DNA from: a virus
DNA length: 64,000 nucleotides
IMG/VR virus record: IMGVR_UViG_3300009768_000008
Location: 905-64,904 of that record
Strand: one strand, 5' to 3'
Every line of letters begins with the position of its first letter. Within the stretch, counting starts at the first letter, position 1. This document shows positions 15,395-48,363 of the stretch, in pieces. The position numbers and the translations under genes are program-made. Under the pieces are notes generated by a model that saw only the letters and a list, made by a program, of their open reading frames with translations, was not told where the DNA came from and searched no databases.

Positions 15395-15512
15395 AACTTA
15401 ACTTGGTTTTTTGTTGTATTCTTCTACAATAAAAATATACAACTTTAAACCTTATCAAGTTACTTTTTGTAGAACTTAGGGGGCTGATGTCCGTATAATA
15501 GGGCTATAGTTC

Positions 15513-18266
15513 TTAACTCTTTTTGGATTTAGGCTTCTCTCCTACTACCGGATTCTGAAGTTTTGTCTTTTCTATCTGAAGTCTTTTATCAGCAATCTCT
15601 TTATTGGCTTGAATCTTCTCACGTTCCAGGTTCATCTTTTGCTGGTTACTCATGTTCTTGTTAACCTCCTGCTCACGCTTGAAGTTCATCTGCTCACGAT
15701 AGTTATCCTGCTCCTGGATCTTTTCCAGGGCATCCTGATAATCACTCTGAGCGTTCTGGTTAAGATCTACAGCAGCCCCGTAGCCGGCAGAACGGATCTC
15801 AGCTACAGTGATGTCCTTCTTGATCATCTTATCGTCACGATTAGCCATAAACTCGCGTTCTGCAGCCTTATCACGTTCCTGAGAAGCAATCAGTTGCTGC
15901 TGCAGTTCTTGTTGATGCTGCTGATCAGCCAGTCTGATGGCGTTAGTCTTCTCTTCAGAAGTCTTCAGGGCATGGTTGATCTCAGCCAGAGAGTCAGCCT
16001 TGATGATGTTACCCAGATCATAGATGGAAGCACCGGCTGTATTGTTGTTCAGAGCCAGCTGTTTAAGCTGCTCCATGATGTTCCGGGAGTTTACCCTGGT
16101 AGTACAGAAGATGTTCAGATCGCGTAAAAGAAGACTTGTACCATTAATCTGGAAGTTGACCTTCTCATCGGACTGAGTAATGTACTGAAGACGGATAGAG
16201 GGCTTCTTAGAATGGTAGTACTGGGCCAGGTCGGTCCTCATCTGGTGAACCCGCGGCATTAGGTAGTCAGAGTGCTGAGTAAACAGGTGTTCTGTCTGAG
16301 CATAGGAGGCTGATTGAGCCATCTCAAGACCTTTTGCAGAATCCTGTACTCCAAGCTGCTGACCCATCCGCTGGGGGTTCAGACCAATGACCTCAAAGGC
16401 CTGGTTCTTAAAGTAGGTAGCCAGGTTAATACGGGAAAGCAGACGGTTTGTCTGTTCCAGGTTTAGTACCTGGTAGTGTTGGAAGGAAAGGGCGTTCTCA
16501 GTGTTTGTAATCGTACTGTCCAGGGGCAGCATCTGGAAGTTCTTCATAGCCACATAGGCTTTGGCCAGATTATTTTTACCCCAGTCTTCTCCCATAGAGT
16601 GACGAGGTAAAGCGTTCTGGTCCAAAAGAATAACCGTACCAAGCTCATCTACAAGGATGTCAGCTATCTGGTTATTCACTATGTTGTAGCCTATCTGGTA
16701 TGGCTTCATCAGATCGACCAGTGAAATACTGCGGGTGTTACGATCACCGAATACAGCACCTTCCACTGGGAGTTTGCAGCCATAGAGAGTACTATCTCCT
16801 TTAAACTGGAAAGGAATAGGGCCCGGTTTACCACCGTTCAGTCCGAGATAGATCGGATTGATACCACCAGGGTTATTCATACCCCAGAAACTTGGCCTAT
16901 TAGGACCAATCTTGATACCACCATAGGTCTCGTTAATCCAGATCCAGTCAATATGTTCACCAAAGATCAGGTTGTCCTTACTCTTCTGTTTGTATAATGC
17001 AGTGTTATAGAGAGGTTTATCTGTAACTTTGTAGGTCTCATCTACAATATCCTGAATAAGTTCTCCTTCTTCAGTGATCTTGGTAAGGTGTCCTACCTTC
17101 CGCTGACTTTTCCAGTAAGCAGTGGTTACCCTTAAAAGGTGCTGCTTTCCGAAGTCCTGAGTATCTTCTGAGTCGGCCAGGATCCACTCTACAATGTCCC
17201 CGGTACCAAACTTAGTATCATAGAGACTCATGAACTGACGGTAAGCCAGGGAGGGCATCTGAGTATTCCACTCATGAGATCTTGTAGGATCATAGTAGGT
17301 ACCATCATTCTGATATCCTTGTACAGCATAGCCGGCAGATCTTACCGGATAGATAGTCTCGATGGCTTCCAGTTGCTCCTGGGTCATCATCCAGCCATAC
17401 TTGTCAATGATATCAGCAGCACTGGCCAGGTCAATCTTACCTACCCAGGAACCCTGGGAAATATACCTGGTATCCGGTGATTTATGGTAGAAAGTCAGTA
17501 GAGGATTCCATAACTCAATTTCATAGTCATCCTCCATCATCCGGAAGTGCCAGAACTCACGGTCGGTGATCAACATGTCACGGAAACCGCGTTCTTCCAG
17601 CTCATCCATACGGAAACGTTCCTCATCAACGCGTTTTTGGTGAGCAGCCCACTCTTCGATCATACTACGATAATCCTTCTTGAAAAAACCCTCAATCTCC
17701 GGGAGCTTCTTGAGGTTATCTGGTTGCATGGCGGTTTGAGCCTCCTCACTGTCCAGTTCAAGGCCTTGGGACATCATCTGAAGCGTCATCTTACGTTGAG
17801 CGTTTTGAAGTAAAACCTGCTCGATCTGAGCACGTTTCTCTTCAAGCATCTCGTTGTAAGATAGGTCATCTACCGCCCGGAACATGATCTTTGAGGTTCT
17901 CTGGGCAAACTCGTTACACAGAACGTTGATTACGTTCGGAATGATCGGATAAAACTTGAGCTCTAACGCTGATGAGTCCTCTTTGGTAAGAGTTTCGATT
18001 AGGTCAGCCATCTCGTTGTCTTCCTCAACTATGTAGTCAGATTTATCAATAATCCCTTTGGCCAGCTTGTAGTTCTTCATGAGTCTGCGAGCATTACGTC
18101 TCAGCATCTTCATACCCTGCCACTCGAGCCAGTCAAGGTTCCATGCACGCCACTCATCATCCTTTTCCTTTGCAGGAAGGAACTGGATAGGTTGGGTCAG
18201 AGTACCCATCTTGTTGTACTCAACCTTCTTTCCGGCTTTTAGGTCAAGGGCGTTATATATTTGCAT
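15513..18266 (-). CDS. putative portal protein (917 aa) with a charged C-terminal coiled-coil extension
   Basis: Large ORF adjacent to the terminase; C-terminal KEQE-rich tail. Confidence 0.5.
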   Translation of the reverse strand: MQIYNALDLKAGKKVEYNKMGTLTQPIQFLPAKEKDDEWRAWNLDWLEWQGMKMLRRNARRLMKNYKLAKGIIDKSDYIVEEDNEMADLIETLTKEDSSALELKFYPIIPNVINVLCNEFAQRTSKIMFRAVDDLSYNEMLEEKRAQIEQVLLQNAQRKMTLQMMSQGLELDSEEAQTAMQPDNLKKLPEIEGFFKKDYRSMIEEWAAHQKRVDEERFRMDELEERGFRDMLITDREFWHFRMMEDDYEIELWNPLLTFYHKSPDTRYISQGSWVGKIDLASAADIIDKYGWMMTQEQLEAIETIYPVRSAGYAVQGYQNDGTYYDPTRSHEWNTQMPSLAYRQFMSLYDTKFGTGDIVEWILADSEDTQDFGKQHLLRVTTAYWKSQRKVGHLTKITEEGELIQDIVDETYKVTDKPLYNTALYKQKSKDNLIFGEHIDWIWINETYGGIKIGPNRPSFWGMNNPGGINPIYLGLNGGKPGPIPFQFKGDSTLYGCKLPVEGAVFGDRNTRSISLVDLMKPYQIGYNIVNNQIADILVDELGTVILLDQNALPRHSMGEDWGKNNLAKAYVAMKNFQMLPLDSTITNTENALSFQHYQVLNLEQTNRLLSRINLATYFKNQAFEVIGLNPQRMGQQLGVQDSAKGLEMAQSASYAQTEHLFTQHSDYLMPRVHQMRTDLAQYYHSKKPSIRLQYITQSDEKVNFQINGTSLLLRDLNIFCTTRVNSRNIMEQLKQLALNNNTAGASIYDLGNIIKADSLAEINHALKTSEEKTNAIRLADQQHQQELQQQLIASQERDKAAEREFMANRDDKMIKKDITVAEIRSAGYGAAVDLNQNAQSDYQDALEKIQEQDNYREQMNFKREQEVNKNMSNQQKMNLEREKIQANKEIADKRLQIEKTKLQNPVVGEKPKSKKS

Positions 18267-18271
18267 GGTTC

Positions 18272-18577
18272 TTAGTTATTTGTATACAGAGAGGGTGTAG
18301 GATGATCAGACCCCTGAGCTGTTAGTGAGCTTAAAGCTTGAACATTGTTACTATACAGAATACCACTATCTCTGGGCTGCCAGGGAGCAGTTGTAGGAGT
18401 ATTCCACGGATGATTAGGAGCAGCCGTACCTGGTATATTGATCGGCAGAAGAGGTTTGATACCCAGTGATTCTTCTTCTTTTAACAGCAGAATAGCTTCT
18501 TCCAGAGTAAGGGAGCTTTCTTTGATCAAACGAGAAAGTATAGCTACTTTCTGGGAATGTAATGTACTGTTTTCCAT
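18272..18577 (-). CDS. hypothetical protein (101 aa)
   Basis: ORF track; stop overlaps the portal start region. Confidence 0.35.
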   Translation of the reverse strand: MENSTLHSQKVAILSRLIKESSLTLEEAILLLKEEESLGIKPLLPINIPGTAAPNHPWNTPTTAPWQPRDSGILYSNNVQALSSLTAQGSDHPTPSLYTNN

Positions 18578-24645: not shown

Positions 24646-25041
24646 TTACTTTTTCAGTGTTCGTTCTTTTTTCTGCTCCTGCTCATTAGGGATGATCACT
24701 TCCTCACCAACGGTTAATCCCATCTCAGCCAGTTCCGGATTGTTATCCAGATCTTCCTGGGTAATCTTATGAGGAGTTCCTCCCTGATAAGGATCCGGAT
24801 CTGGTTTAGGGTTCGTGATCTGGGCAATAAAAGTCAACGCTTTTAGCTCCTCGGCCCTGGACACAGCTAAACGTGTGTTCAGATCCTGGAGCTCAACCTG
24901 GACTTTTTTTACTTCGATCTGTTCTTGGAAAAACTTGAGGATTTCCTCCCTGGTAGGGGCAGTCTTTTCCTCGGTGGGAGTTACATTGTCCTTAGACATA
25001 GGGCGTGGGTTTTTTAGGTGTTTAGAAATTCGGGCTATCAT
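24646..25041 (-). CDS. hypothetical protein (131 aa)
   Basis: ORF track. Confidence 0.4.
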   Translation of the reverse strand: MIARISKHLKNPRPMSKDNVTPTEEKTAPTREEILKFFQEQIEVKKVQVELQDLNTRLAVSRAEELKALTFIAQITNPKPDPDPYQGGTPHKITQEDLDNNPELAEMGLTVGEEVIIPNEQEQKKERTLKK

Positions 25042-25315
25042 CTGACTCTACCCCATGGTAGGCCAGAAACTTATGTTCAAACTCTTCAAACGGAGTGTCA
25101 ATGATCAGATGGTCGTCGTTCTTCATGAACAATGTGGTACATCCGCATGTCATCTCACCCTCATCATCTGAGGTAAGCTTAATACTTCTTACATCTTCCA
25201 AGAGAAACACAAAGTCCAGCCATTTACCTTTGTCGGTAATGTTCATGTCCTCAGCTTCTTTTGGATCCATGGAGTAGCAATGAAGCCTACACTTATGAAG
25301 CTTTAGAGTTTTCAT
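25022..25315 (-). CDS. hypothetical protein (97 aa)
   Basis: ORF track. Confidence 0.4.
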   Translation of the reverse strand: MKTLKLHKCRLHCYSMDPKEAEDMNITDKGKWLDFVFLLEDVRSIKLTSDDEGEMTCGCTTLFMKNDDHLIIDTPFEEFEHKFLAYHGVESDDSPNF

Positions 25316-25530
25316 TAGAGTACGGATTTGTTTTTCTTAGAAACATGGTACTGGTTATACCGCATATACTTGCTCTGGTTGGAGGCCTTGAGGATCTGGG
25401 TTGCCAGGGCACGTTCGGCTTCACCATCCCGGACATCTACTACGGGAACGTAGATCTTCTGTCCGTACTTATTTACAGTCTCTCTGAAATAGGATAACTG
25501 GGTTTGATCGTCTAATGATTGGTTTTCCAT
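25315..25530 (-). CDS. hypothetical protein (71 aa)
   Basis: ORF track; promoter-like element upstream at 25575-25605. Confidence 0.4.
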   Translation of the reverse strand: MENQSLDDQTQLSYFRETVNKYGQKIYVPVVDVRDGEAERALATQILKASNQSKYMRYNQYHVSKKNKSVL

Positions 25531-25730
25531 AGTGTAATAAGTTAAGGTTACAGTATAATATACTTAATAAGTTTAAACTCTACAAATTTATCTTGTAGAA
25601 CTTATAAAAAGTACACAAACTTATACACTATGTGTGGATATGTAAGCGTTGAGGAAGTACAAAGAAAGCCGGTTACTTGGAGAGATGCAAGTACCCGGGC
25701 CCTAAATATCTTAGAGAGGTTAGGTGGTAA

Positions 25731-26117
25731 CTAGGCAGAAAGCTGTTCCTTTTCTAATAAGACAATGATGTCTTCTGGGAGATTGTGCTTCTTATGATGC
25801 TTGTAGAAATAGTTCACCAGGGCTTTGTGGTAGACCTCCTGGGCATGCGTGAGAGGTTTGGTATCCTCATGAAGTTCATAGGTAACTTTTACCGGTATGG
25901 TCTGGTACTGCTTTCGTACAACCAGCTCATATTCTTCCAGATCTTTTAAGGTCTCACTGAGGACTTTGACAGATATATCCGGGAGCTTGCGTTTGAGTTC
26001 AGAGAATCTCATGGGGCCCTGGCGTAGGTGCCAGATAACTACTGCTCTCCACTTTTTGCCCCACATCTCGGAGGCTAGGTTCATCAGGTAAGCTGCTAAC
26101 ATATGATTACAACACAA
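25731..26117 (-). CDS. HxlR-family winged-helix transcriptional regulator (128 aa)
   Basis: WRAVVIWHLRQGPMRFSELKRKLPDISVKVLSETLKDLEEYELVVRKQYQTIPVKVTYEL matches the HxlR signature (GP-RF-EL...IS-K-L...L..L...LV.R..Y...P..V.Y.L). Confidence 0.6.
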   Translation of the reverse strand: MCCNHMLAAYLMNLASEMWGKKWRAVVIWHLRQGPMRFSELKRKLPDISVKVLSETLKDLEEYELVVRKQYQTIPVKVTYELHEDTKPLTHAQEVYHKALVNYFYKHHKKHNLPEDIIVLLEKEQLSA

Positions 26118-26245
26118 TAAACAAAACTCAGCAGTAGTAGTTGTCTTTAGAGTGGACTATTTCTCACTGAGGTAAGTAGATTACTAAGGGGTAATACTTA
26201 GTAAAATTAATCAGTGTCAGCTTATATACAACTGATTCTTATCAG

Positions 26246-26317
26246 TTTCCTCCCCTGGGTACGATCCAGGAACTGCAGGGCCAAAACCTGCCGTGATACC
26301 AGTTTCACCAAAAGGAA
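26246..26317 (-). tRNA. tRNA-Gln (anticodon UUG)
   Basis: Hand-folded cloverleaf. Acceptor UUCCUUU/GGAGGAA; D GUGA-AACUGGUA-UCAC; anticodon stem GCAGG/CCUGC with loop UUUUGGC; T CCUGG-AUCGUAC-CCAGG. Confidence 0.6.
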
Positions 26318-26323
26318 ATAGTG

Positions 26324-26395
26324 GGTGTAAGGACGGTACCGACCCGTCTTCCCCAGGTCCACAACCTGGTGCATCACCTTAATGCTTCAAACACC
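26324..26395 (-). tRNA. tRNA-His (anticodon GUG) with G-1:C73
   Basis: D GCAU/AUGC; anticodon CCAGG-UUGUGGA-CCUGG; T GACGG-GUCGGUA-CCGUC; extra 5' G pairs with C73; the acceptor stem has two U.U mismatches. Confidence 0.5.
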
Positions 26396-26400
26396 ATAAG

Positions 26401-26472
26401 AGCCTTCTACCGGAACCGACCCGGTAAGTCCTGTTTACAAGACAGGCAGTTTTCCAGTTAGCTTAAGAAGGC
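26401..26472 (-). tRNA. tRNA-Thr (anticodon UGU)
   Basis: acceptor GCCUUCU/AGAAGGC perfect; anticodon CCUGU-CUUGUAA-ACAGG; T ACCGG-GUCGGUU-CCGGU. Confidence 0.55.
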
Positions 26473-26477
26473 CTGTG

Positions 26478-26550
26478 TGGTACAGAGTGGTTACGATCCA
26501 CTTCCCCCGGTTTTTCAGACCGGTGCTTCTACCAAGTTAGCTTCTGCACC
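26478..26550 (-). tRNA. tRNA-Phe (anticodon GAA)
   Basis: acceptor GGUGCAG/CUGUACC; anticodon CCGGU-CUGAAAA-ACCGG; T AGUGG-AUCGUAA-CCACU. Confidence 0.6.
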
Positions 26551-26625
26551 AAGTAGGACTTTGTCAAAGCCGGCCACTCCTGCACAAAGAGGAGACCAGC
26601 TTGATCAGGTGTCCTGAAACCTTTG

Positions 26626-26698
26626 AGGTGGGTGGGAAACTCGAAGCCCCGTATGACTGTTTTGCGGACAGTTGCCTTACCATCTTGGCGAACCCACC
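26626..26698 (-). tRNA. tRNA-Cys (anticodon GCA)
   Basis: acceptor GGUGGGU/ACCCACC perfect; anticodon ACUGU-CCGCAAA-ACAGU (C33 unusual); T-loop UUCGAGU. Confidence 0.5.
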
Positions 26699-26704
26699 AT
26701 GTTG

Positions 26705-26776
26705 TCTAGCTGATCTGGATCGAACAGACGTAATCTTGCTCCCAAAGCAAGTGCCTTACCGCTAGGCTACAGCTAG
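26705..26776 (-). tRNA. tRNA-Pro (anticodon UGG)
   Basis: acceptor CUAGCUG/CAGCUAG; D GCCU-AGCGGUA-AGGC; anticodon CUUGC-UUUGGGA-GCAAG; T GUCUG-UUCGAUC-CAGAU. Confidence 0.65.
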
Positions 26777-26830
26777 AAAAAGAAAACCCCCAAACCGTTT
26801 TACCAGTCTGGGGGTTAGTATTTTGATTTT
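26774..26830. terminator. bidirectional terminator-like hairpin AACCCCC-(17 nt)-GGGGGTT flanked by U tracts on both strands
   Basis: read directly; abuts the 5' end of tRNA-Pro. Confidence 0.5.
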
Positions 26831-26944
26831 GTACTTCTTAACTCGTTGCTATGATCACTGTACATACACCAACACAACTACCCCCGCAGACCGGACAAGG
26901 TTGCGTAAACTGGGTAAACTGTGTATGGGTAGTAATCTTCTTCA

Positions 26945-26986
26945 TCTACAATACAAAGATACTACTTTTTGTAGAACTACCAAAAT
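26945..26986 (-). promoter_or_regulatory. Bacteroidetes-type sigma-A promoter (minus strand): -33 TTTG at 26983-26986 and -7 TATCTTTG at 26952-26959, 19-nt spacer containing GTTCTAC
   Basis: matches the TTTG / TAnnTTTG consensus with canonical spacing; the same extended motif recurs at six or more sites. Confidence 0.5.
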
Positions 26987-26993
26987 CTTTTTG

Positions 26994-27066
26994 CACGGGC
27001 CCAGGGAAACGATCCCTGTCCATCCGAGGTTTTGGAGACCTGGTGCATACCATTATGCTGGCCCAT
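26994..27066 (-). tRNA. tRNA-Trp (anticodon CCA), reduced D-loop
   Basis: acceptor AUGGGCC/GGCCCGU; anticodon CAGGU-CUCCAAA-ACCUC (4 bp); T CAGGG-AUCGUUU-CCCUG; D-loop only 4 nt. Confidence 0.45.
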
Positions 27067-27071
27067 GTATG

Positions 27072-27155
27072 TGGGAAGTGAGTGAGTCGAACACCCCGAG
27101 TCCGTAGACAGCTGGTTTACAATCAGCCCCGCTACCACTTACGGTATAACTTCCC
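27072..27155 (-). tRNA. tRNA-Tyr (anticodon GUA), long variable arm
   Basis: acceptor GGGAAGU/ACUUCCC perfect; anticodon GCUGA-UUGUAAA-CCAGC; variable hairpin; T GGGUG-UUCGACU-CACUC. Confidence 0.55.
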
Positions 27156-27235
27156 CTATTTCGCATATCCAGTCAGTAGTCTTTCCGTCAAAAGCTATCA
27201 ACCAGAGTATGCCGTTCATATTAACGATGTACATG

Positions 27236-27321
27236 CAGAGAGCAGAGTAGTCGAAACCCACCCCGGTTAAGGAGCCCACTGTTTAGCAAACAGGTCTGAC
27301 CACCTAGTCAGTTTACTCTCT
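27236..27321 (-). tRNA. tRNA-Ser (anticodon GCU), long variable arm
   Basis: acceptor AGAGAGU/GCUCUCU; 3-bp D-stem; anticodon CCUGU-UUGCUAA-ACAGU; T-loop UUCGACU. Confidence 0.5.
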
Positions 27322-27326
27322 AGATG

Positions 27327-27418
27327 CGGAAGGCAGAGGAACCGACCCCCATGCCCGTGTAAGGGGCAGCCTAGTTTTCAAGACTAGTCGCCACTCCAAT
27401 GTAGCTGCATTACCTTCC
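27327..27418 (-). tRNA. tRNA-Ser (anticodon UGA), long variable arm
   Basis: acceptor GGAAGGU/GCCUUCC; anticodon CUAGU-CUUGAAA-ACUAG; variable hairpin UGCCC-CUUACAC-GGGCA; atypical T-arm. Confidence 0.5.
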
Positions 27419-27424
27419 ATGTAG

Positions 27425-27510
27425 TACCGGTGGAGGGGGATGATCCCACACGATCCTTTCGGATCACAAGATTTTAAGTCTTGCGTGTCTGCCTATTTCA
27501 CCACACCGGC
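27425..27510 (-). tRNA. tRNA-Leu (anticodon UAA), long variable arm
   Basis: acceptor GCCGGUG/CACCGGU; anticodon CAAGA-CUUAAAA-UCUUG; variable hairpin GAUCC-GAAA-GGAUC. Confidence 0.55.
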
Positions 27511-27591
27511 AGTTGTCTGGACTCTCACCATAGCAGTCAGGGATTTCAGGTCCCCAGGTGTGCATTCAATTCGTCCCACCTTCTGACATCG

Positions 27592-27674
27592 TACCTCTGA
27601 CAGGCCTCGAACCTGCACCCGTTTCCGGACTAGATCCTAAGTCTAGCGTGTCTCCCAAGTTTCACCACAGAGGT
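27592..27674 (-). tRNA. tRNA-Leu (anticodon UAG), long variable arm
   Basis: acceptor ACCUCUG/CAGAGGU; anticodon CUAGA-CUUAGGA-UCUAG; T GCAGG-UUCGAGG-CCUGU. Confidence 0.55.
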
Positions 27675-27685
27675 ATAAAAACCAA

Positions 27686-27715
27686 AATCCCGACCAGGAA
27701 AACCTAATCGGGATT
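27686..27715. terminator. hairpin AATCCCGA-(14 nt)-TCGGGATT followed by a U tract (plus strand); also U-flanked on the minus strand
   Basis: read directly. Confidence 0.4.
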
Positions 27716-27941
27716 GGAAACTTTTTCAGTAACTACATACCTCACCCGATTGGTTTATGCAACCAATACAGACTGAGTGAGGATAGAGTAAACTGCTTCA
27801 TAAAAATTTGGTGGATGGTCACCCCACTTGTTTTAATCTAAACAAGAAATCATCGGTCGGTTACGTTAACTTCTCAGCTTGAACGCCTGTCGTGTGACCT
27901 TTCAGCTTTCACGCCTGTTAAGAGGCTTTACCGACCATCAC

Positions 27942-27990
27942 AATACAAATATACAACTCTTTTGGAGTTCTACAAAATATTTTTGTGGAG
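27942..27990 (-). promoter_or_regulatory. Bacteroidetes-type promoter (minus): -33 TTTG inside ATTTTGTAGAAC, 19-nt spacer, -7 TATATTTG. Also a near-palindrome TCTACAAAAtatTTTTGTGGAG.
   Basis: read on the minus strand: ctccacaaaaatatTTTGtagaactccaaaagagttgTATATTTGtattg. Confidence 0.55.
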
Positions 27991-28061
27991 ACTCTGGAAC
28001 TTGAATCCAGCTGATATCCTGCTTGCAAGGCAGGTGTCCACTCCTGGCAGACCCAGTCCCC
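27986..28061 (-). tRNA. tRNA-Ala (anticodon UGC)
   Basis: acceptor GGGGACU/AGUCUCC (G.U); anticodon CCUGC-CUUGCAA-GCAGG; T CUGGA-UUCAAGU-UCCAG; 7-nt variable region is unusual. Confidence 0.45.
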
Positions 28062-28067
28062 ATGCTG

Positions 28068-28139
28068 TACTCTCGGGTGGTAACGATCCACCTACCTTCT
28101 CCGTATCAGGGAGCTACTCTACCATTGAGCTACGAGAGT
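28068..28139 (-). tRNA. tRNA-Ile (anticodon GAU)
   Basis: acceptor ACUCUCG/CGAGAGU perfect; D GCUC-AAUGGUA-GAGU; loop CUGAUAC; T GGUGG-AUCGUUA-CCACC. Confidence 0.6.
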
Positions 28140-28144
28140 ATAAG

Positions 28145-28217
28145 TTGATCCGGGTGGGTACGATCCACCGACCTTGACGTTATGAGCGTCCTGCTACTAC
28201 CACTGAGCTACGGATCA
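28145..28217 (-). tRNA. tRNA-Met (anticodon CAU), copy 1
   Basis: acceptor UGAUCCG/CGGAUCA; D-arm GUAGCUCAGUGGUAG; loop CUCAUAA; T GGUGG-AUCGUAC-CCACC. Confidence 0.55.
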
Positions 28218-28222
28218 GTATG

Positions 28223-28296: not shown

Positions 28297-28302
28297 AAAT
28301 AG

Positions 28303-28710: not shown

Positions 28711-28719
28711 ATAAAACTG

Positions 28720-29244: not shown

Positions 29245-29396
29245 CTTGTTATCTTAAACTTACTTCTAGTTATCCTAGATCAGTACAGACAAATGAACCC
29301 ACGGAGCGTACCTTCTCATCCGCTCTGCGTTCCATAATGCCTATATTGACTGTAAGTAACATTTGCTGTGTAATAGTTTTATGTAGATCTCTGACC

Positions 29397-29440
29397 TACA
29401 ATACAAATATACGTTAGTTCTACAACATGACCAAATTTAT
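29397..29440 (-). promoter_or_regulatory. Bacteroidetes-type promoter (minus): -33 TTTG, a 20-nt spacer containing GTAGAAC, -7 TATATTTG
   Basis: minus strand reads aaTTTGgtcatgttgtagaactaacgTATATTTGtattg. Confidence 0.5.
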
Positions 29441-30523: not shown

Positions 30524-30759
30524 AACTAAGCTGTTTTAAAAGTGAGGGGGCTTTTACACCCCCTTGGGCTAAGGCAGGTCTGTCAAGTTTCATGAGTTCT
30601 CTACAAATATAAGAAACCAGACTCCAGTTCTCCAAATATTTCTACAAGTTTCCTTGAGCTCATTTTTGAGCCCTAGAACATAGTAATAAGGAATACATGG
30701 TATGTTATAGAGCTCAGATTTGAGCTCAAGGAAAGTTGGACCCAGTTCTCCAAGATACC

Positions 30760-35441: not shown

Positions 35442-35467
35442 TTATCTGATTTCAAATCACCATCTGT

Positions 35468-35728
35468 ATGAGAGTCTTTAAATCTATACCGTTTTGGTCC
35501 TGGGTAAGCTTTTGCTTATGCATAAGTACATTCTGGACCTGGGTGTTCTACCGTCTGCACCCTGCATTATGGGTGCCTACAGTTATTTCTTTACTTATGA
35601 CGCTGATACTTTTCAGAAAAGACAGTCTGGAAAACCAGCGTATTGATAAGAAGTATACTGATCCACCCAGAAAATGTGGACTCATCAAGGACAAAGACGA
35701 TGGGATCTACTGGGACTACAAGAACTGA
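35468..35728 (+). CDS. membrane protein (86 aa)
   Basis: two hydrophobic helices. Confidence 0.35.
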   Translation: MRVFKSIPFWSWVSFCLCISTFWTWVFYRLHPALWVPTVISLLMTLILFRKDSLENQRIDKKYTDPPRKCGLIKDKDDGIYWDYKN

Positions 35729-35911
35729 CACGTTAGGTACCATGGTACTTAGTACGGTCGAATGACATATCTACAACAGGCAGCCGCATCTCCGCCTCTG
35801 GGCCGTGTACGGCTGTTTTCTATCTTCTTTTTCTGGTGAACCTGGTCTCGAAAGGGGCTGGGTTCACCTTGTTATCACTGTAAGAATCAGTGACAAAGAG
35901 GATAATATAGT

Positions 35912-36115
35912 ATGGCAGCTAAAAAAGCTCAACTCATCATCGTTGGGATGTTGAAGCCACTGGGTAACTTAAGTAACTCCTGGGTACGGTGTACATACTG
36001 GTCAACAACTATATTTATTTTCTTGGGGCTTATATCCTTGATTATCCTTGTCTGGACAGTAAAGGCAGGTGTGTACTACTTAAAGAGATTGGTAATCAAG
36101 GTAATTAGTGCGTAA
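35912..36115 (+). CDS. small membrane protein (67 aa)
   Basis: hydrophobic. Confidence 0.3.
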   Translation: MAAKKAQLIIVGMLKPLGNLSNSWVRCTYWSTTIFIFLGLISLIILVWTVKAGVYYLKRLVIKVISA

Positions 36116-36133
36116 CATTAAAAACACTACACC

Positions 36134-36457
36134 ATGAAAGGACTAACAAAAAGAGTACGCCATGTACACTATAAAAGAATGTTGGAGTACTTTGAGAAAC
36201 ACATTGAACAAAAAAAGAAGTCTGTGTTTGGTATCCACTGTATGGGTCTTTGCAGGCTTGTATACCTTTCACTACGTCCTCTGTACAAGTGGGAGTCGGA
36301 CGTTCCTTTTCTGGAGCACTATCCAGAACTTATGGCAAAAAGACCAAAAAGGTATTATGGACCTTTTTGGTGGGATACCAGGATCAAAGATGGAGGACAT
36401 CTCAAACGTATTCGTGCACTTAAAAAGTGCATAGAGGAAACCAAACGAACCTCATAA
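36134..36457 (+). CDS. hypothetical protein (107 aa)
   Basis: ORF track. Confidence 0.35.
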   Translation: MKGLTKRVRHVHYKRMLEYFEKHIEQKKKSVFGIHCMGLCRLVYLSLRPLYKWESDVPFLEHYPELMAKRPKRYYGPFWWDTRIKDGGHLKRIRALKKCIEETKRTS

Positions 36458-36519
36458 CTCACAGCTAACTGACCAGGATATCTTCCTGGTTTTTTAATAC
36501 ACCCACAAACCATCCAAAA

Positions 36520-36894
36520 ATGGAAAAACTTTTTATCGACCTTAACGAAGGTTACATTCATCTTACACTCGGTATCTCTGAAGAACGTGCCCGTGAGCTT
36601 GGAAAAGCTGTGGCAGAAACAGTTAAAAATGCTCGTCAAAACGGCATCATCACAGATGTTGAGAAAGACGGTCAAAAAGGCGTTAAGATCAGCGGTCCGC
36701 GTCTGTTGGAAATCCTGCTGAATGATGTGGCTCAAACTGAACCGGAACGGATCATGTTGATGTCCAAGTTTGAAAGTATGATAAAAGATCTCAGATCTAG
36801 CATGGATGATACTTTTGAACAGCTTAAAGATCTGCTGAAACAGATGAAAGAAGCTCAATCTGCTGGTTCGGATGAGTCTACTACTCAGCTGTAA
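36520..36894 (+). CDS. hypothetical protein, paralog A of a tandem pair (124 aa)
   Basis: clear paralogy with 36978..37310 (MEKLFIDLNEGYIHLTLGISEERARELGK... versus MEKINIVHGPDYLHLNFGITDERAEKLGK...); conserved upstream ACCATCCAA. Confidence 0.5.
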   Translation: MEKLFIDLNEGYIHLTLGISEERARELGKAVAETVKNARQNGIITDVEKDGQKGVKISGPRLLEILLNDVAQTEPERIMLMSKFESMIKDLRSSMDDTFEQLKDLLKQMKEAQSAGSDESTTQL

Positions 36895-36977
36895 AAACAC
36901 TCACACCCTGTTACTCATGTGACAGGGTGTTTCTTAAGTACACAACTATTCCTCATACACCCTAAAACCATCCAAGT

Positions 36978-37310
36978 ATGGAAAAGATTAACATCGTCCA
37001 CGGACCTGACTATCTGCATCTGAACTTCGGTATCACCGACGAACGTGCTGAAAAACTGGGCAAGATCGTCTTTGACGAGATCATAGCCAAAGCTGTCGAG
37101 AGAGGCATCATTGCCACCTACAAAGACGAGAACACAGGAGACGAAGGTCTTACTGTTATTGGTAGCAAACTGGCTGAAGCTCTGCTCAATGAGGTTGCTC
37201 AGACAACTGCTGAACAGATCTTTCTGTTCGTAAGGTTCGATGACCTCCTGAACAACCTGGGCGCGAAGATCATGGTCATGCAGCAAGAAGCTGATGAACA
37301 GGTCGAGTAA
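36978..37310 (+). CDS. hypothetical protein, paralog B of a tandem pair (110 aa)
   Basis: see paralog A. Confidence 0.5.
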   Translation: MEKINIVHGPDYLHLNFGITDERAEKLGKIVFDEIIAKAVERGIIATYKDENTGDEGLTVIGSKLAEALLNEVAQTTAEQIFLFVRFDDLLNNLGAKIMVMQQEADEQVE

Positions 37311-37339
37311 CTCAAATCATCCTGTTACATACCTCTAAA

Positions 37340-37645
37340 GTGTGTAACAGGATCTTTAACTCACCAAAAAACATTGTTATGAACGCTAAACATCTGCAAG
37401 GTTTGCTGGTTCTGGTAGCATCAGCTACACCCAGAGAAAAACTTCTGGAAGATCTGGAAGAAGCCTGCAAAGAGGCGCGACTGCGGCCTGATAACAAAGA
37501 AGCCCAGGCTCTTGTTGCTTTTCATGCTCAACTCATTCTGATCAACATCGGTACGGACGGTAAGTTTGAGAAAGCAGCACAAATGCTGGAACGCATGGAT
37601 CATATCGACAAGATGAGTGAACTGGTCAAACCTGCTGACAACTAA
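37340..37645 (+). CDS. hypothetical protein (101 aa)
   Basis: ORF track. Confidence 0.4.
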   Translation: MCNRIFNSPKNIVMNAKHLQGLLVLVASATPREKLLEDLEEACKEARLRPDNKEAQALVAFHAQLILINIGTDGKFEKAAQMLERMDHIDKMSELVKPADN

Positions 37646-37820
37646 GACATTTCTTATATGGATGGTTGCCCTGGAGACAATGTTCAAAGGGGCAGCCATT
37701 CTTTCTTTACTGAACAACTAAGTTGTATGCCGTAAAGCATGCAGACCCTGAGCAGTAGTATAAACGGCCCTGATACCTGGTACTGGGGCCACTTTTTTAT
37801 AGTGTAAAATCGTCCTCAAC

Positions 37821-38045
37821 ATGAAAAAACTTCTTTTACTACTTGGTTTCCATAGTACTAATGAAGTAGAGGCCCCTACTCCTCGTTCTGAAGTTGTTGA
37901 ACGCCCCTTTGATGCAAAAGACTATGCATTGTGGTGTAAGCAGTTTAACGTATCCAGGATGAGTAACCGTAACGGTCAGTTCACTGTTCGGATTGGAGAA
38001 ACTGAAAAGGTTGTAGAACTTGACAGCAACCTCAACATTTCTTAA
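37821..38045 (+). CDS. hypothetical protein (74 aa)
   Basis: ORF track. Confidence 0.35.
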   Translation: MKKLLLLLGFHSTNEVEAPTPRSEVVERPFDAKDYALWCKQFNVSRMSNRNGQFTVRIGETEKVVELDSNLNIS

Positions 38046-38065
38046 CTTTACTTTTTTGTAGAACT

Positions 38066-38629
38066 ATGGTATTCCAAAACATCAAGCTTAACCATGAAGT
38101 AGATGACTTCAAGGAAGCACTCGGCCTTACAAAAAGTCTGATGAATGTCTGCAGGGAAAGGATCTTCTTCTCCCACTTTGCCAACAACTTGATGGCCATT
38201 GAGTTATATGACTCAAAGGATGCAGCACCTAATGACCTGACCACCATATCTGGTGACCTTCAGCGTTGTCTGAAGATGATAACAGATCCTCTGGAGTATG
38301 AAGCTACACTTCTGTTCTTTTCACACTACCACGAGATAGCAATCCATGCTTTCAAGTATTGGAAGCTTGAGCATGCAAAAGATTTGACTGTAGAACAGAA
38401 ACTCAAACTCTCCATTCTGAAGCTGACTTTAGAAGCAGCCAAGAAGAAGGTAGAGCGTGAGAACAAAGAAAACGTCCTTTTACTCAGCGACCTGGTACAA
38501 CGCATAGATGTAGTAGTTAAATCTAACTATAACTTCAGTAAGTACATGAAAATCATAGGCATTCCCTATGACGATGGTACTTCCCAGGTGGACGACATGC
38601 TGAAAGACCTCTTTAAAGATGGTGACTAA
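38066..38629 (+). CDS. hypothetical protein (187 aa); ATG 3 nt after a TTTGTAGAAC motif
   Basis: ORF track. Confidence 0.45.
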   Translation: MVFQNIKLNHEVDDFKEALGLTKSLMNVCRERIFFSHFANNLMAIELYDSKDAAPNDLTTISGDLQRCLKMITDPLEYEATLLFFSHYHEIAIHAFKYWKLEHAKDLTVEQKLKLSILKLTLEAAKKKVERENKENVLLLSDLVQRIDVVVKSNYNFSKYMKIIGIPYDDGTSQVDDMLKDLFKDGD

Positions 38630-38718
38630 GTTACCAGTCCAAACTTTTTTTGTTTACACTTTGTAGAACTAAGAAAAACGTCTACATTTGTTCTACATCT
38701 TTAAAGTTTACATGTTAC

Positions 38719-39003
38719 ATGAAAAAGAATCCCCGGTTGTCCGGTGGGTTTGGAATGGTATCCAAGACAGTAATGTCAGATCCAGAACTCTCCATGAGAG
38801 AGAAGGGTCTGTATGCTTACCTGGCTACATATGCTGATAGTGTAACAAACGAGCTGACAGTAAGTGTAAACAGGATGTGTGCTGAGCTTGGTATTACCCA
38901 GGCCACCGTTAAAAGATCTTTGAGTTTACTTGAGAAGAAAGGTATCATAACCAGAGTTGACAAACGTGCATGCACTGTAAGAACTACAGTGCTTTTAAAA
39001 TAA
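38719..39003 (+). CDS. winged-helix DNA-binding protein (HTH_36 / replication-initiator-like), 94 aa from the Met at 38719
   Basis: LYAYLATYAD...LTVSVNRMCAELGITQATVKRSLSLLEKKGII; preceded by operator-like TTGTAGAAC...GTTCTACAT. Confidence 0.45.
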   Translation: MKKNPRLSGGFGMVSKTVMSDPELSMREKGLYAYLATYADSVTNELTVSVNRMCAELGITQATVKRSLSLLEKKGIITRVDKRACTVRTTVLLK

Positions 39004-39230
39004 CTAGGTACCAGGTCGAGGGAATGTTTGCTCACGTAATGGGTAAATCCTTCTATGCATAGGTTTATGCTGTTATTGGAACAGATACCCCTCGATCCTA
39101 GTACCAAACTTTTTGTTGACTGATCACTAGAGCCATACAAACTCTGTAGAGGGCAGATCGAGCTGGTTCATGTAAAGAAGATGCTAACCTTACACTGGCT
39201 GTAAGAAGATGCAGATTTCTTGCAGGTAGG

Positions 39231-39437
39231 TTGAAACACTTGCCACATGTTCAAGTGCTCTCTGTTTGCAGCAGAAGCGGTCTCCTCATAAGAGACTTAT
39301 GTCCTGGAGATAGCCCCAACAAAGCCAAGTCTGATCCTGGTGGGTGTTGCTTTGAAACATGCTCCAAGGGTACGCCGTGCTACAGAGAATGCGTAGACAA
39401 CACCACCCAGGATAGACTTAAAAACAGTACAGTATGA
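39231..39437 (+). CDS. Cys-rich small protein (68 aa)
   Basis: ORF track. Confidence 0.3.
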   Translation: MKHLPHVQVLSVCSRSGLLIRDLCPGDSPNKAKSDPGGCCFETCSKGTPCYRECVDNTTQDRLKNSTV

Positions 39438-40165
39438 AACATTCTAAAGTCGTAGGCCAGATCTACGAAACAACCAATTATGAAATGTTCAAAAAACGCA
39501 GTGACAACCGTCAGCTGAAAGAACACATCGTAAAAGAAAGAATGGAAAGCATCAAGCAGATTGGCCAACAAGATGCTATCAAGGTTTCTAAAGACTTTAT
39601 GGTAGACGACGGCCAACATCGGTTGGAAGCTTGCAGAAGGCTTCAAAAACCGGTAAAATATACTTTCCAGGAAGAGCCGCTCAGTACTCACGAGCTGGCC
39701 ACCTTGCAGACACAATCTTCCCGGTGGAAGGTTGAAGACCACGCTCAATCTTTCCTGTCAAAAGGAATTGAAGACTACAGACTTTATAACCTGTTTGTAA
39801 AACTCTATCCTGAGTTCAACCACAGTGTTGCGTTAGTTCTTCTGACCAATACGATCAGCAGAAACCGTCACACTGAAGAACAATTCAAGATCGGAACATT
39901 CAAAGTGAAAAGCTATACGAAAGCCGTTAAGCTGGCAGATCAGCTTAGAAAAATAGGTGAGTACTATGAAGGCTATGTTCGTAATGGATTTATCCAGGCA
40001 TTTCTGACTTTGGCTGAACATCCGGACTTTGAGTTCAACCGGTTACTCCGGAAGATTCCTAAGCGTAGGAAAGAACTGATGGACTTCTCTAAAGCAGAGG
40101 ATTACATCCAAACACTGGAACATATGTACAACTGGAAAGAAACCAAGAAAGTACAGTTTACATAA
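39434..40165 (+). CDS. ParB-like nuclease-domain protein (243 aa)
   Basis: VDDGQHRLEACRRL matches the ParB/Srx DGxHR motif. Confidence 0.5.
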   Translation: MKHSKVVGQIYETTNYEMFKKRSDNRQLKEHIVKERMESIKQIGQQDAIKVSKDFMVDDGQHRLEACRRLQKPVKYTFQEEPLSTHELATLQTQSSRWKVEDHAQSFLSKGIEDYRLYNLFVKLYPEFNHSVALVLLTNTISRNRHTEEQFKIGTFKVKSYTKAVKLADQLRKIGEYYEGYVRNGFIQAFLTLAEHPDFEFNRLLRKIPKRRKELMDFSKAEDYIQTLEHMYNWKETKKVQFT

Positions 40166-40200
40166 TCCAGCTTCAACAACTTTTAAAACCTCAATCGTCT

Positions 40201-40422
40201 ATGCGTAAACTAATCTTAGAGATCCTGGTAGCACTGGTAACACTTTGTGTGACTGTTAATGCGGTGTACTACCTGGGAGATATCCTCTCCGGAAAAATCA
40301 ACTTCCTCATCATGTTTGTGGTACTGTTTGCTCTCGGAGTTTGTGTCATAGCATCAGTTTACGTTCTGATGAGAGTGGTTAAAACCTATTCTCAAACTGT
40401 AAAAAAACAAAGTAAGTCATGA
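40201..40422 (+). CDS. small membrane protein (73 aa) coupled to an SPFH gene; NfeD-like partner?
   Basis: two TM helices; 4-nt overlap with the downstream gene. Confidence 0.35.
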   Translation: MRKLILEILVALVTLCVTVNAVYYLGDILSGKINFLIMFVVLFALGVCVIASVYVLMRVVKTYSQTVKKQSKS

Positions 40423-41405
40423 TTTTCCTCATCACCCTCATCTTGTCACTCGGCCTTTTAGGTCTGATGTTCGGGATCTTCAATTTCAACAACTACGTTA
40501 AAGTAGTCAAAAAAGAAGTAAACTACGGTAGCAGAACCCAAACTATTGAAGAAGAACAAGTCAACGTTGCTCAGATCATTAAGACAGCAGCCGTTGTTCT
40601 CTTCTGTATCATCGCATCTGCTGTAAATCCTCTTTCCCTGCAGCGTATTGACGCCGGTAATGTGGGTCTTAAGATCGACAAAGTCGGTAACATGAAAGGT
40701 ATCCCTACCGCTATCCCGGTAAAGGGTTGGGTATTCTATAATGACTGGACTACAGACATCGTAGAGTATTCTATCCGCCAGGGTCACGTACAGTATGAAG
40801 CATTCGATGTAACTACCAAAGGTGGTTTCAACATCAAGGTAAACCCGAGCTTCAACTTTGCCCTGAAACCTGAGAAAGCCGCGGACGTCTATATCAACCT
40901 GCTGAAAGGTGGAAGCTTCTCCAGTCTTACTGATAACTGGATCAAGACAGCTACCAACATCGCCATGAATAATGCTACGAATAAGTATACCATTGACAGC
41001 ATCTTCAACAACCGGGAACACTATCAACAGGATATCATCAAAGAGCTCAACAAAGAAATGAGTGCTTACTTTACTGTGTCCCAGATCAATCCTGGTGTTG
41101 TCCCGCCTCCGGAACTGGCTAACGTAATCAAGCAGAAAACTGAAACTATTCAGAAAGCACAACAGGCTGAGCTTGACCGTATTACAGCTGAGAACGAAGC
41201 TCTTACAAAGATCGCTACGGCTCGTGGTGACTCAGCTCAGGCTGTGATCCAGGCTGCAGGTAGGGCCGAAGCTATCAAGCGTGAACAACAGACTCTTACA
41301 CCCTTATACATCGAGTATATCAAAACTCAGAAGTGGAACGGTGATGTACCCAGTACTGTGTTAGGTAACTCCAACGGGTTCATGATCAACCTCAATAACA
41401 AGTAA
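40419..41405 (+). CDS. SPFH/band-7 (stomatin/HflK-like) domain protein (328 aa)
   Basis: N-terminal TM, central alpha/beta region, C-terminal Ala/Glu-rich coiled coil (AQQAELDRITAENEA...AAGRAEAIKREQ). Confidence 0.45.
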   Translation: MIFLITLILSLGLLGLMFGIFNFNNYVKVVKKEVNYGSRTQTIEEEQVNVAQIIKTAAVVLFCIIASAVNPLSLQRIDAGNVGLKIDKVGNMKGIPTAIPVKGWVFYNDWTTDIVEYSIRQGHVQYEAFDVTTKGGFNIKVNPSFNFALKPEKAADVYINLLKGGSFSSLTDNWIKTATNIAMNNATNKYTIDSIFNNREHYQQDIIKELNKEMSAYFTVSQINPGVVPPPELANVIKQKTETIQKAQQAELDRITAENEALTKIATARGDSAQAVIQAAGRAEAIKREQQTLTPLYIEYIKTQKWNGDVPSTVLGNSNGFMINLNNK

Positions 41406-41460
41406 CAAAGAGCCGGGTAAAACCGGCTCCCTTCATATCACCCTAAAAAATACTACTGCT

Positions 41461-46884: not shown

Positions 46885-47005
46885 GGGCTTATTAGTTCAG
46901 TGGCAGAACACCGGGTCCGATGAGGCGGCTTTTATTAAGGTTATTGCAACCCCAAAAGAAAACCGAAACCCCGGGAGGTCACCAGTTCAAATCTGGTATA
47001 AGCCC
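46885..47005 (+). tRNA. tRNA-like gene with a roughly 50-nt insertion in the anticodon loop. Acceptor and D arm (GGGCUUAU-UA-GUUC..GAAC) and T arm plus acceptor (ACCAG-UUCAAAU-CUGGU-AUAAGCC-C) are intact.
   Basis: acceptor 7/7 pairs plus G-1:C73; anticodon-stem halves CCGGG ... CCCGG separated by 53 nt. Confidence 0.4.
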
Positions 47006-47039
47006 CTATAAACAAACACTTTAAATTAGTCTAAAGCTT

Positions 47040-47279
47040 ATGAAAGTCTTATTCGGAAAGATGCCCAGTAAGTTGATCGTACGTTTGAAGATAGCACTGG
47101 GTATCTTTACTATCTGTACGATCTTTGGGATTATAGGGTACTTTGTACCTTCTTCAAAGCCTCCCTTACTTAGAACATTTGCTGCGTTCATCCTACCACT
47201 TGCTTGTCTAACAGCAGTTCTGATCTTGTTTAAGATCATGGAATTTATCCTGTGGTGTTTTGATTGTAAGCCCAGGTAA
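47040..47279 (+). CDS. small membrane protein (79 aa)
   Basis: hydrophobic. Confidence 0.3.
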   Translation: MKVLFGKMPSKLIVRLKIALGIFTICTIFGIIGYFVPSSKPPLLRTFAAFILPLACLTAVLILFKIMEFILWCFDCKPR

Positions 47280-48363
47280 AAATATAGTACAGAGGAGGTA
47301 GGCTTGGAAGTAGCCATAAGGTAGAACCTTACTCTTGGGTTGAGGCTGGCTGAGATCAGATATACATCTAAGAGTCCTTTAAAGAGTTGCAAGTAGGACC
47401 CGTAACTGATTATGTGACGACTAAAAGTGGTAAAACTACAGGAGATATAGTCCTGATGAAAAGAAGTAAGCGTCAATAGGACTGAGTAGCTGGATTATTA
47501 TACACTCCTTAGAGCATTTGGTGTAACAACACACTCTGTACTTTTTTCTTAGCTCCGGGGATCACACCATCCGTCAATCTGGTTGTGTTATGTTTAAGCA
47601 AGCTTAAAAGAGCAGCTCCATTGGTCTGTTTACTGTCTGGTGAGCTCAGACTTTAAAAAGTAGAATGGGTCAACTGGAAAAGCTGCAGAAATATTTGTAG
47701 AACTCCTAAAAAAGTTCTATATTTGTTCTACACTGGGCCCGTCTGGTTTAGACAGCAGAGTGAGTGGTAACTACACATGTGGACAAAGTAAGAACGTCCT
47801 AAAATACTTACAAAACAATAAACGCTATGACTAAGTCTGAGCGTGTAGCAGAAGGTGAAGCTATCCTGGCTTCTATCTTCGTTGATGAGGCTGTAGCAGC
47901 CTGATCCTACGGGGGATCTATCCCTGGCAACAGAAAATAGAACTGAAGTCTTATATGAGCATACAGAACTAAACGGGACATATGCCGTAAAGTAATCCGT
48001 GTATAAGACGTAGAGTGGCTCCCTTAATAGTCTAGGCTGACCTAGAGCATTCTAACTGAAGCATGGTATACAGGGGGTGAAGCCGTGCAACCCAGCTATG
48101 GGTTACCAGAATGATACAGTTACAGATGAGCGTAGTATGTGAAAACATTCAAATAAGTATCTGTTATAAAAAGTATAGTGACTGAATGTTTGGTAGTAAT
48201 AGCATGTTTTCCTGGTTATGTCAAAACTAGGTGGTGGAGTAGGCGGTCTTGATTGGACGCCCCCAAACTACGGTGCAGATGAAGTGACGCAGTCTTTTAG
48301 ACTTGATCCAAAGTAATCAGTACTAAACATGTAATACGTTGTAGTTATTGACTTCTTTGTTGG

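Follow-up and report, generated by a model that had tools for sequence, protein, structure and literature searches.

Predicted Bacteroidota-type promoters in a distant crAss-like phage carry a conserved 11-bp box

Which RNA polymerase would read a motif that recurs between the genes of a phage genome, and why does a sequence containing TAGAAC accompany it? These questions are raised by a 64,000-nucleotide stretch of viral DNA, hereafter the window (positions 905 to 64,904 of IMG/VR record IMGVR_UViG_3300009768_000008), for which an initial annotation had proposed a family of Bacteroidota promoters with a -33 TTTG, a -7 TAnnTTTG and a phage-specific TAGAAC spacer. From motif statistics, positions and conservation in related contigs, we infer that the strict sites of this family are very probably promoters for the host primary-sigma RNA polymerase of Bacteroidota type; their core is a kind of element already known and described for crAss-like phages. 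The so-called TAGAAC spacer is really the 11-mer TTTGTAGAACT (variant TTTGGAGAACT). Overall, we see in the family a lineage-specific form of a promoter class already known, in which the box is an 11-bp element that is mobile in register and has inverted partners.

The pattern TTTG-N19-21-TAnnTTTG has six matches in the window, compared with 0.92 ± 1.05 in 60 first-order Markov simulations, and all six are on the sense strand, non-coding and co-oriented with the downstream genes (P3, 26984-26954(-); P4, 27976-27946(-); P5, 29435-29404(-); P6, 30636-30604(-); P7, 38660-38690(+); P8, 47694-47725(+)); a coding flag at 38660 reflects an over-extended TTG open reading frame (ORF), the gene start being 38719. 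The exact -7 boxes are TATATTTG in four cases, TACATTTG and TATCTTTG, and the six-seed alignment reads AAAtATTTG, then the spacer, then TAtATTTGT. As a profile, the six sites recover only themselves at E < 1e-5; the additional sites P1, P2 and P10-P12 have only TAnnTT.. variants at -7. The G of the P8 -7 box lies 10 nucleotides (nt) upstream of the 5' end of a phage transfer-messenger RNA (tmRNA), a position that fits a primary start with later trimming of the 5' end, and in P3 the ATG of a leaderless small ORF comes 9 nt after the -7 box. The tmRNA anchor does not generalise, since none of seven relatives has a tmRNA at the same place. Three of the six strict promoters (P3-P5) are within a transfer RNA (tRNA) array. 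The sense-strand, intergenic placement of the six matches, the tmRNA placement and a layout match to Cellulophaga phage phi14:2 thus uphold the proposed -33/-7 architecture. Promoters of the E. coli (sigma-70) type were considered as well and rejected, a consensus scan of 25000-40000 giving 18 sites compared with 23 in shuffles.

Counted as TTGTAGAAC plus its complement, the recurrent motif has 10 exact matches against 1.00 expected (0 of 100 shuffles reach 10), at 13490, 15467, 25593, 26969, 27967(-), 29417(-), 38011, 38056, 38661 and 47695. Eight of the ten copies are in non-coding DNA, which makes up ~21% of the window (binomial p = 1.1e-4), so that the motif is not equally frequent within genes. 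T follows in all ten; the 13490 copy lies inside the capsid gene and is conserved there, as codons, in relatives. Eight of the nine sites first listed are exact, whereas 30597 is not, and the copies at 13490 and 38011 had been overlooked; 30597 reads GTTCTCTACAA, the complement of TTGTAGAGAAC, and TTGTAGAGAAC comes after a -7 box. Enrichment of k-mers in intergenic over coding DNA was too weak for unaided recovery of the motif, and a literature search with the motif strings returned primers only. The partner 14-mer CAATACAAATATAC has five matches against 0.58 expected and is present at all four sites reported as paired, exactly at 27941 and 29399 and with one mismatch each at 15427 and 26949. 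Read on the minus strand, three of these four pairs give the announced -33 TTTG, 19-20 nt and -7 box: TAGAAC directly follows TTTG at 27976-27946, the box is deeper within the spacer at 29435-29404, and the spacer carries the reverse complement GTTCTA at 26984-26954. The reading fails at 15440, where TATATTTT stands as the -7 box and TTTG is missing from the positions 19-21 nt upstream; the site at 15424-42 falls instead into a separate subclass that looks activator-driven and has no -33 TTTG.

A spacer element is therefore conserved in one sense and not in another. All six strict promoters have (T/G)AGAAC or GTTCTA within the spacer (chance ~1% per promoter), but the element has no fixed spacer position and its unit is the 11-mer box. 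In ~60% of instances the box overlaps or abuts the -33 element (P4, P7, P8, P6, P11 and 38011, as well as the P7, P11, P12 and P4 orthologues). Out of this register, some boxes stand 7-12 nt ahead of the -7 box, and exact copies occur 5 nt before the -7 box in P5 and 1 nt before it in P10 (TTGTAGACC); inverted copies occur inside the spacer of P3, likewise in relative L292, and upstream in P2 (11 nt) and P1 (~36-37 nt). A further copy overlaps +1 in P1 and its orthologues, and two stand directly against a start codon, as TTGTAGAACT-ATG at 38056 and TGTAGATC-ATG at 52259, with the same junctions in other genomes. The usual partner of the box is GTTCTA(C), which flanks the -7 box, with one copy at the adjoining spacer edge and another beyond it. 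The ten exact copies are one 10-mer, whereas the -7 boxes vary. Two simpler accounts were rejected: none of the out-of-register copies creates an opposite-strand promoter, and the TAGAAC..GTTCTA inverted repeat with its T-rich tail would make a poor terminator, its stem having just 6-7 AT-rich pairs and being absent from P3 and P5.

Table 1 Putative promoters, box copies and associated genes in the window
Feature	Position	Strand	Layout and context
P12, weaker promoter	8459..8501	-	TTTGGATAGG..N..TATATTAT-TATTGAGAACC; precedes structural gene 7870-8418(-)
P1, late-type promoter	15421..15475	-	between portal gene and gp92-like gene
P2, late-type promoter	25553..25601	-	GTTCTACAA-ga-TAAATTTGTAGAGTTTAAAC..AAG-TATATTAT; heads operon beginning 25530(-)
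P3, strict	26943..26984	-	TTTG-N19-TATCTTTG, inverted box GTTCTACAA in spacer, then TATTGTAG-ATG
P4, strict	27939..27976	-	TTTGTAGAACT-N12-TATATTTG-TATTGTG; within tRNA array
P5, strict	29396..29435	-	TTTG-N20-TATATTTG; head of tRNA array; box TTGTAGAACT 5 nt before -7
P6, strict	30595..30647	-	TTGTAGAAA-ta-TTTGGAGAACT-N14-TATATTTG-TAGAGAACT; first leftward operon
Two direct box copies	38011..38068	+	gTTGTAGAACT-N14-AACATTTC (weak -7), then TTTTTTGTAGAACT-ATG; gene 38066-38629
P7, strict	38660..38697	+	TTTGTAGAACT-N8-GTC-TACATTTG-TTCTACA; precedes winged-helix gene
94-aa winged-helix DNA-binding protein (Pfam HTH_36)	38719..39003	+	candidate box reader
P8, strict	47694..47732	+	TTTGTAGAACT-N9-GTTC-TATATTTG-TTCTACA; precedes tmRNA
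Phage tmRNA gene	47735..48393	+	predicted to be driven by P8; Rfam RF00023, 60.7 bits vs gathering 47, full model
P10	51276..51306	+	TTTG-N19-TATCTTTA; TTGTAGACC just before -7 box
P11	52205..52269	+	TTTGGAGAACT-N7-GTTCTC-TAACTTCA (weak -7), then TGTAGATC-ATG

The sites differ in their detail (Table 1). P1, P2 and P12 head structural operons and form a weaker subclass, whose members have no correctly spaced -33 TTTG and in which the -7 box is TATATT(T/A)(T/A), followed by TATTG(T/A)AGAA; they look like activator-dependent late promoters. P1 combines the inverted box GTTCTACAA, 37 nt and TTG-TATATTTT-TAT-TGTAGAAG in this order, occupies the position of the phi14:2 g092 promoter and keeps TAAATTTTTAnGGTTTAAAGTTGTATATT-N5-TGTAGA(G/A) in ~50 related contigs. 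The P2 core TAAATTTGT..GTTTAAACTT..AGTATATTA is kept in relatives L110, L112, L149 and L163, and the P12 orthologue of the closest relative reads TTTTTTGGAGAACT-N13-TATATTATTATTGAGAACC. P6 has three box-like copies, P8 reads TGTAGAAC-N10-GTTCTA-TATTT-GTTCTAC, and the box-ATG junction TTGTAGAACTATG of the gene at 38066 stands before another gene in L112. P10, which resembles the composite cggatTTTGTATAACnnnTTGTAGAAC of the closest relative, lies 20 nt downstream of a family-conserved 17-mer at 51240-51256. This 17-mer, TTATAGCTCTATTATCC, is unchanged in 68 of 186 related loci whose flanking proteins are just 55-75% identical; it is found at two orthologous non-coding places, right after the portal gene (15493-15509(-)) and in the replication module (51240-51256(+)), with a TTGTAGAAC-type box 10-35 nt downstream.

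Comparison of related phages showed that the box is, among orthologues, more conserved than the -7 box. TTTGTAGAACT hardly changes among nine P7 orthologues, in contrast to their -7 box (TACATTTG, TACTTTTG, TAACTTCG, TAATATTG) and to the A-rich spacer middle, which differs in both sequence and length; their alignment keeps TTTGTAGAACT, AAGTTCT, TAcnTTTG and TTCTACAC. At P11, both box copies are invariant in a five-genome alignment, and TTTG is absent from -7 in all five. Such conservation at orthologous promoters suggests that the box is under selection of its own. Whole promoter cassettes have moved as well. As a paralogous duplicate of the P7 cassette, P8 matches the P7 of relative L291 at 90% over 41 nt, and L291 has a different region upstream of its own tmRNA. 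In L292 the P3 block is nearly identical and the sequence downstream of it differs; the P4 orthologue there retains TTTGTAGAACT..GTTCTATATTTG with different downstream cargo.

We propose that host primary-sigma RNA polymerase would read the core, in which an A/T-rich tract precedes a -33 TTTG, 19-21 bp separate this TTTG from a -7 TAnnTTTG, and transcription would start ~5-9 nt downstream, and that the sites are counterparts of the middle/late promoters of crAss-like phages. They would drive the tRNA array, the tmRNA, small leaderless ORFs or RNAs, the first leftward operon and the regulator operon. The separate 10-11 bp box TTTGTAGAACT/TTTGGAGAACT would serve as an operator-like element, bound by a regulator that recognises a specific DNA sequence; GTTCTA(C) copies usually go with the box, located where the spacer meets the -7 box, at +1 or immediately 5' of the start codon. 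Placed beside -33, this regulator would help or time the use of RNA polymerase, especially at promoters with a poor -7 box such as P11; when bound within the spacer or farther downstream, it would dampen transcription. To the reading of the box as a regulator site we assign a probability of roughly 0.4.

If such a regulator is encoded by the phage, the best candidate is the 94-aa winged-helix protein whose gene lies directly downstream of P7 in every relative examined. P7 holds the fullest box set, and a small DNA-binding gene behind it has the classic look of an autoregulated factor. Among the ~28 of ~100 ORFs scanned, this protein alone stood out; its AlphaFold model has a predicted local distance difference test score (pLDDT) of 85, and the nearest folds are the CodY C-terminal domain and the MarR and ArsR winged-helix regulators. 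Its assignment as the specific reader nevertheless stays tentative, and we regard it as rather doubtful. A broader proposal, in which the winged-helix factor re-programmes host primary-sigma RNA polymerase throughout an abundant environmental crAss-like lineage as an autoregulating, MotA-like temporal switch that activates from beside -33 and represses from the spacer or +1, seems unlikely to us. The gene is flanked by those of a conserved 187-aa protein (38066-38629) and of ParB-like and SPFH/Band-7 proteins (ORFs 39434-40165 and 40419-41405(+)). The gene that follows it varies in relatives, being an AAA ATPase gene in L358, and a search for relatives with the ParB-like neighbour found none.

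Several observations weigh against a dedicated phage regulator acting in a Bacteroidota host. An unrelated 58-kb viral contig repeats a cassette whose -33 reads TTG(T/C)AGAACC and whose -7/+1 region reads TATCTTTGTAGAGAAC, and no winged-helix homologue was detectable within the 16 kb of it that were examined. The same layout in an unrelated contig fits a preference of the polymerase or host better than a private phage factor, and does not support calling the element phage-specific. The recognition helix of the winged-helix protein barely differs between relatives with TAGAAC at -33 and the L083-L087 clade without it, and no co-variation of helix and box could be shown across relatives. The distance between the AGAAC and GTTCT arms floats over 7-10 bp among otherwise similar promoters, which a rigid dimer would not tolerate, and box spacings elsewhere are irregular (22, 24, 30, 31 and 46 bp, centre to centre). 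GTT(G/C)TA directly before the -7 box is common even without any box, so that the second arm may just be an extended -7 element. As to the host, the best capsid match among isolated phages, with 29% identity only, belongs to a phage that infects a cyanobacterium. The unrelated contig itself (IMGVR_UViG_3300027833_000059, loci L199/L208; 58 kb, 28% GC) has at least 12 copies of a ~60-nt cassette, ..TTG(T/C)AGAACC or hairpin..-GTATCTTTGTAGAGAACAATAACTAAAACC..ATG, each before a small ORF. The viral-contig scan with TTTGTAGAACN{13,15}TANNTTTG gave mainly single chance matches, L291, L292 and L199/L208 alone being informative.

These facts lend themselves to a reading in which the box is an extended polymerase contact, TTTG-TAGAAC forming a longer -33 element and GTT(C/G)-TAnnTTTG-T(A/T) a longer -7/start region, both read by the host holoenzyme or a phage-modified form; strong phage promoters would then converge on such sequences. 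We consider this possible rather than probable. It would account for the single register in which ~60% of boxes abut -33, for the two-box layout shared with at least 12 repeated promoters of the unrelated contig, for the GTT(G/C)TA that precedes the -7 box in many family promoters, and for a -33 to -7 distance that is constant at 19-21 bp while the arm-to-arm distance floats. However, no polymerase contact is expected at the ~40% of exact copies that stand in other registers or orientations or beside start codons, conservation of the box above that of the -7 core is unusual for a sigma contact, and both the L083-L087 clade and phi14:2 have a -33 TTTG or TTG without TAGAAC. Strict promoters when pooled come to n = 42 from 2.5 Mb of family loci and n = 7 from host loci, the latter a small sample and the whole too few to judge a general TAGAAC preference.

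The cassette movements described above suggest another reading, in which the box has no function of its own and hitch-hikes in promoter cassettes duplicated and moved within the genome, as in T4-type phages; shared ancestry would then explain the repeats, which might also provide recombination homology. The P7-derived cassette before the tmRNA, with its different counterpart in L291, fits this idea, as do GTATATTTGTATTGTAG, common to P3, P4 and P5, and the presence of P3 and P4 in L292 with other cargo. We judge it improbable: the box is kept at orthologous promoters though the proteins are 50-79% identical and the neighbouring spacer bases have diverged, and isolated exact copies lie away from any cassette (38011, 38056, 15467, 25593). 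Very improbable, in our estimate, is that the box belongs to an altogether different system, as the operator of a host BlaI/CopY- or PadR-type repressor or as an origin iteron for an HTH_36 replication initiator. Flavobacteriaceae do carry TCTACA-TT-TGTAGAAC..TTCTACATTTGTAGAG over the -33/-7 of BlaI-family genes, but the phage boxes differ from the TACANNTGTA palindrome, whose 3 matches in the window (1.57 expected) are all coding and at chance level. For an iteron speak the matches of HTH_36 proteins to PHROG replication-initiator families, with weak RepL matches, and the four box copies clustered at 38011-38698 beside the HTH_36 gene; that cluster, however, has irregular spacing and mixed orientation, and six further copies are dispersed at promoters, the whole set extending over 40 kb and involving unrelated genes. 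A LexA/SOS box was rejected, since the Bacteroidetes SOS boxes GGA-N5-TCC and CTAA-N5-TTAG (PMC8565304) are unlike the box.

Judged by its portal, large terminase and capsid genes, the phage is a distant crAss-like one; the window belongs to a 135.6-kb contig, as recognised through an identical protein, and IMG/VR holds hundreds of related contigs of 100-131 kb each. A near-identity search with 15 kb of the window against isolated phages gave no match. Shine-Dalgarno (SD)-like words lie upstream of 3 of 57 genes, compared with a 10% background, and leaders are A-rich at positions -14 to -11. Bacteroidota genes habitually lack Shine-Dalgarno sequences, as outlined in PMC6847099. About 31 of 51 genome matches to the composite promoter pattern are in Bacteroidota. 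The crAss-like head genes, SD depletion with A-rich leaders, and composite-pattern matches speak for a Bacteroidota host, and the capsid match to the phage of a cyanobacterium speaks against one.

Transcription is leftward in the left arm (1-30523), which carries the head genes, and rightward in the right arm from ~30700. Between the arms, at 30650-30730, a divergent control region contains a GAGCTCA palindrome cluster (TTGAGCTCAAatcTGAGCTC, CTCAAAAATGAGCTCAAGG) that may be the operator of another regulator; similar words occur between two tRNA genes (29074-29136), and TGAGCTCAA with up to one mismatch has 35 matches against 18.8 expected. An early-looking region at 33500-41460(+) has many small ORFs with strong terminator hairpins between them, and 25-40 kb contain 30 terminator-like sites where 11 are expected. 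In a few leaders CACCCTAAA(A/C)C lies 10-25 nt 5' of ATG (34344, 36958, 41439), with no enrichment once mismatches are allowed. No gene for a DFDxD virion RNA polymerase was found within the window. The 1860-aa ORF at 1497-7079(-), with neither a PHROG match nor that polymerase motif, is probably a repetitive tail fibre. It might be the source of the 9-mers that recur in the window, ATCCGGATC with 10 copies and ACCAGTACC with 9.

The tRNA array at 26245-29209(-) comprises 17 genes by ARAGORN and 3 more Rfam tRNA matches; three weak long-arm tRNA-like matches lie at 27074-27418, and a 120-nt tRNA match at 46886-47005(+) may contain an intron. Among the tRNA genes are three promoter-to-terminator mini-units (27686-27946(-), 29245-29404(-) and 26785-26954(-)), whose cargo is different in L292. 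P4 is predicted to drive a ~260-nt structured RNA with a terminator end; this RNA, which Rfam does not match, folds far more stably than its shuffles (z = -3.7). In the P3 unit, the cargo is a leaderless ORF (26838-26945) for a cysteine-rich peptide of 36 aa. The tmRNA, at 659 nt compared with a 374-position model, probably carries insertions; ARAGORN made no tmRNA call at 47735-48393, and a homologue is present in L291.

Taken as a regulatory system, the box and a conserved small DNA-binding protein would be a testable candidate for the control of middle/late gene timing on host RNA polymerase in crAss-like phages; for phi14:2, mapping has covered the promoters alone. If the box is a polymerase contact instead, it would extend the known promoter grammar of the phylum. 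The compact and presumably strong promoters are possibly useful for Bacteroidota genetics.

How, then, does this promoter family compare with known systems? Bacteroidota primary-sigma promoters reportedly have -33 TTTG and -7 TAnnTTTG, as set out by Bayley et al. in 2000 and in later work, and to our knowledge their general consensus has no conserved sequence between these elements. The predicted promoters share the core elements, the 19-21 bp spacing and the SD-less genes, and differ in the 7 more bases that are fixed after TTTG. In T4 middle promoters, a phage-specific MotA box of ~9-10 bp near -30 replaces the -35 element, through sigma appropriation with the co-activator AsiA. Both systems combine a box with an ordinary core element farther downstream, which would account for the conservation of boxes at weak-core promoters such as P11. 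Unlike in T4, the -33 TTTG/TTG is not replaced, since every in-register box opens with it, and many boxes are out of register; no MotA/AsiA homologue turned up, although none was specifically sought. T4-type phages are also said to carry mobile promoter cassettes, the promoter early stem-loop elements (PeSLs) of Arbiol et al. 2010, which combine an early promoter with a stem-loop. Near-identical promoter blocks before unrelated cargo, differing between close relatives, are common to both, whereas here the promoter contains no more than a weak AT-rich inverted repeat.

The BlaI/MecI/CopY family, whose operator is TACANNTGTA (PMC7253601), likewise places a small winged-helix gene behind a promoter with TGTAGA/TCTACA repeats at -33 and -7/+1; the phage protein is HTH_36 rather than Penicillinase_R, and its sites are not TACANNTGTA. 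In the presumed host group, genes for BlaI/CopY-family repressors (~121 aa, MQLSKSEE..) and a PadR gene have two TCTACA-TT-TGTAGA palindromes over their own -33 and -7 (Flavobacteriaceae L337, L341, L342, L346 and L333; Bacteroidales L311 and L338; and L344). The mapped middle promoters of phi14:2, itself crAss-like, are used by host RNA polymerase (Drobysheva et al., 10.1101/2020.03.07.982082). This promoter class lies before homologues of the gp92, portal, IHF and RNA polymerase genes and before tRNA genes, and serves the rifampicin-sensitive host RNA polymerase in the middle/late phase (10.1101/2020.03.07.982082). Read from the genome, phi14:2 promoters have TTG and TAnnTTTGTA 19-20 nt apart behind an A-tract, in many cases with the ATG directly adjoining. 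They differ in their -33 regions (TTGAC, TTGCA, TTTGGA) and have no TAGAAC box, GTTCTA partner or box copies elsewhere. Both phages nevertheless share the tripartite arrangement of A-rich tract, -33 TTG/TTTG and -7 TAnnTTTG(TA), read in the window from sequence alone, the placement at the gp92-like/portal region and at tRNA genes (P1 and P3-P5 in the window), and leaderless junctions such as TATCTTTGTAGTATG, here represented by P3 leading into its 36-aa ORF.

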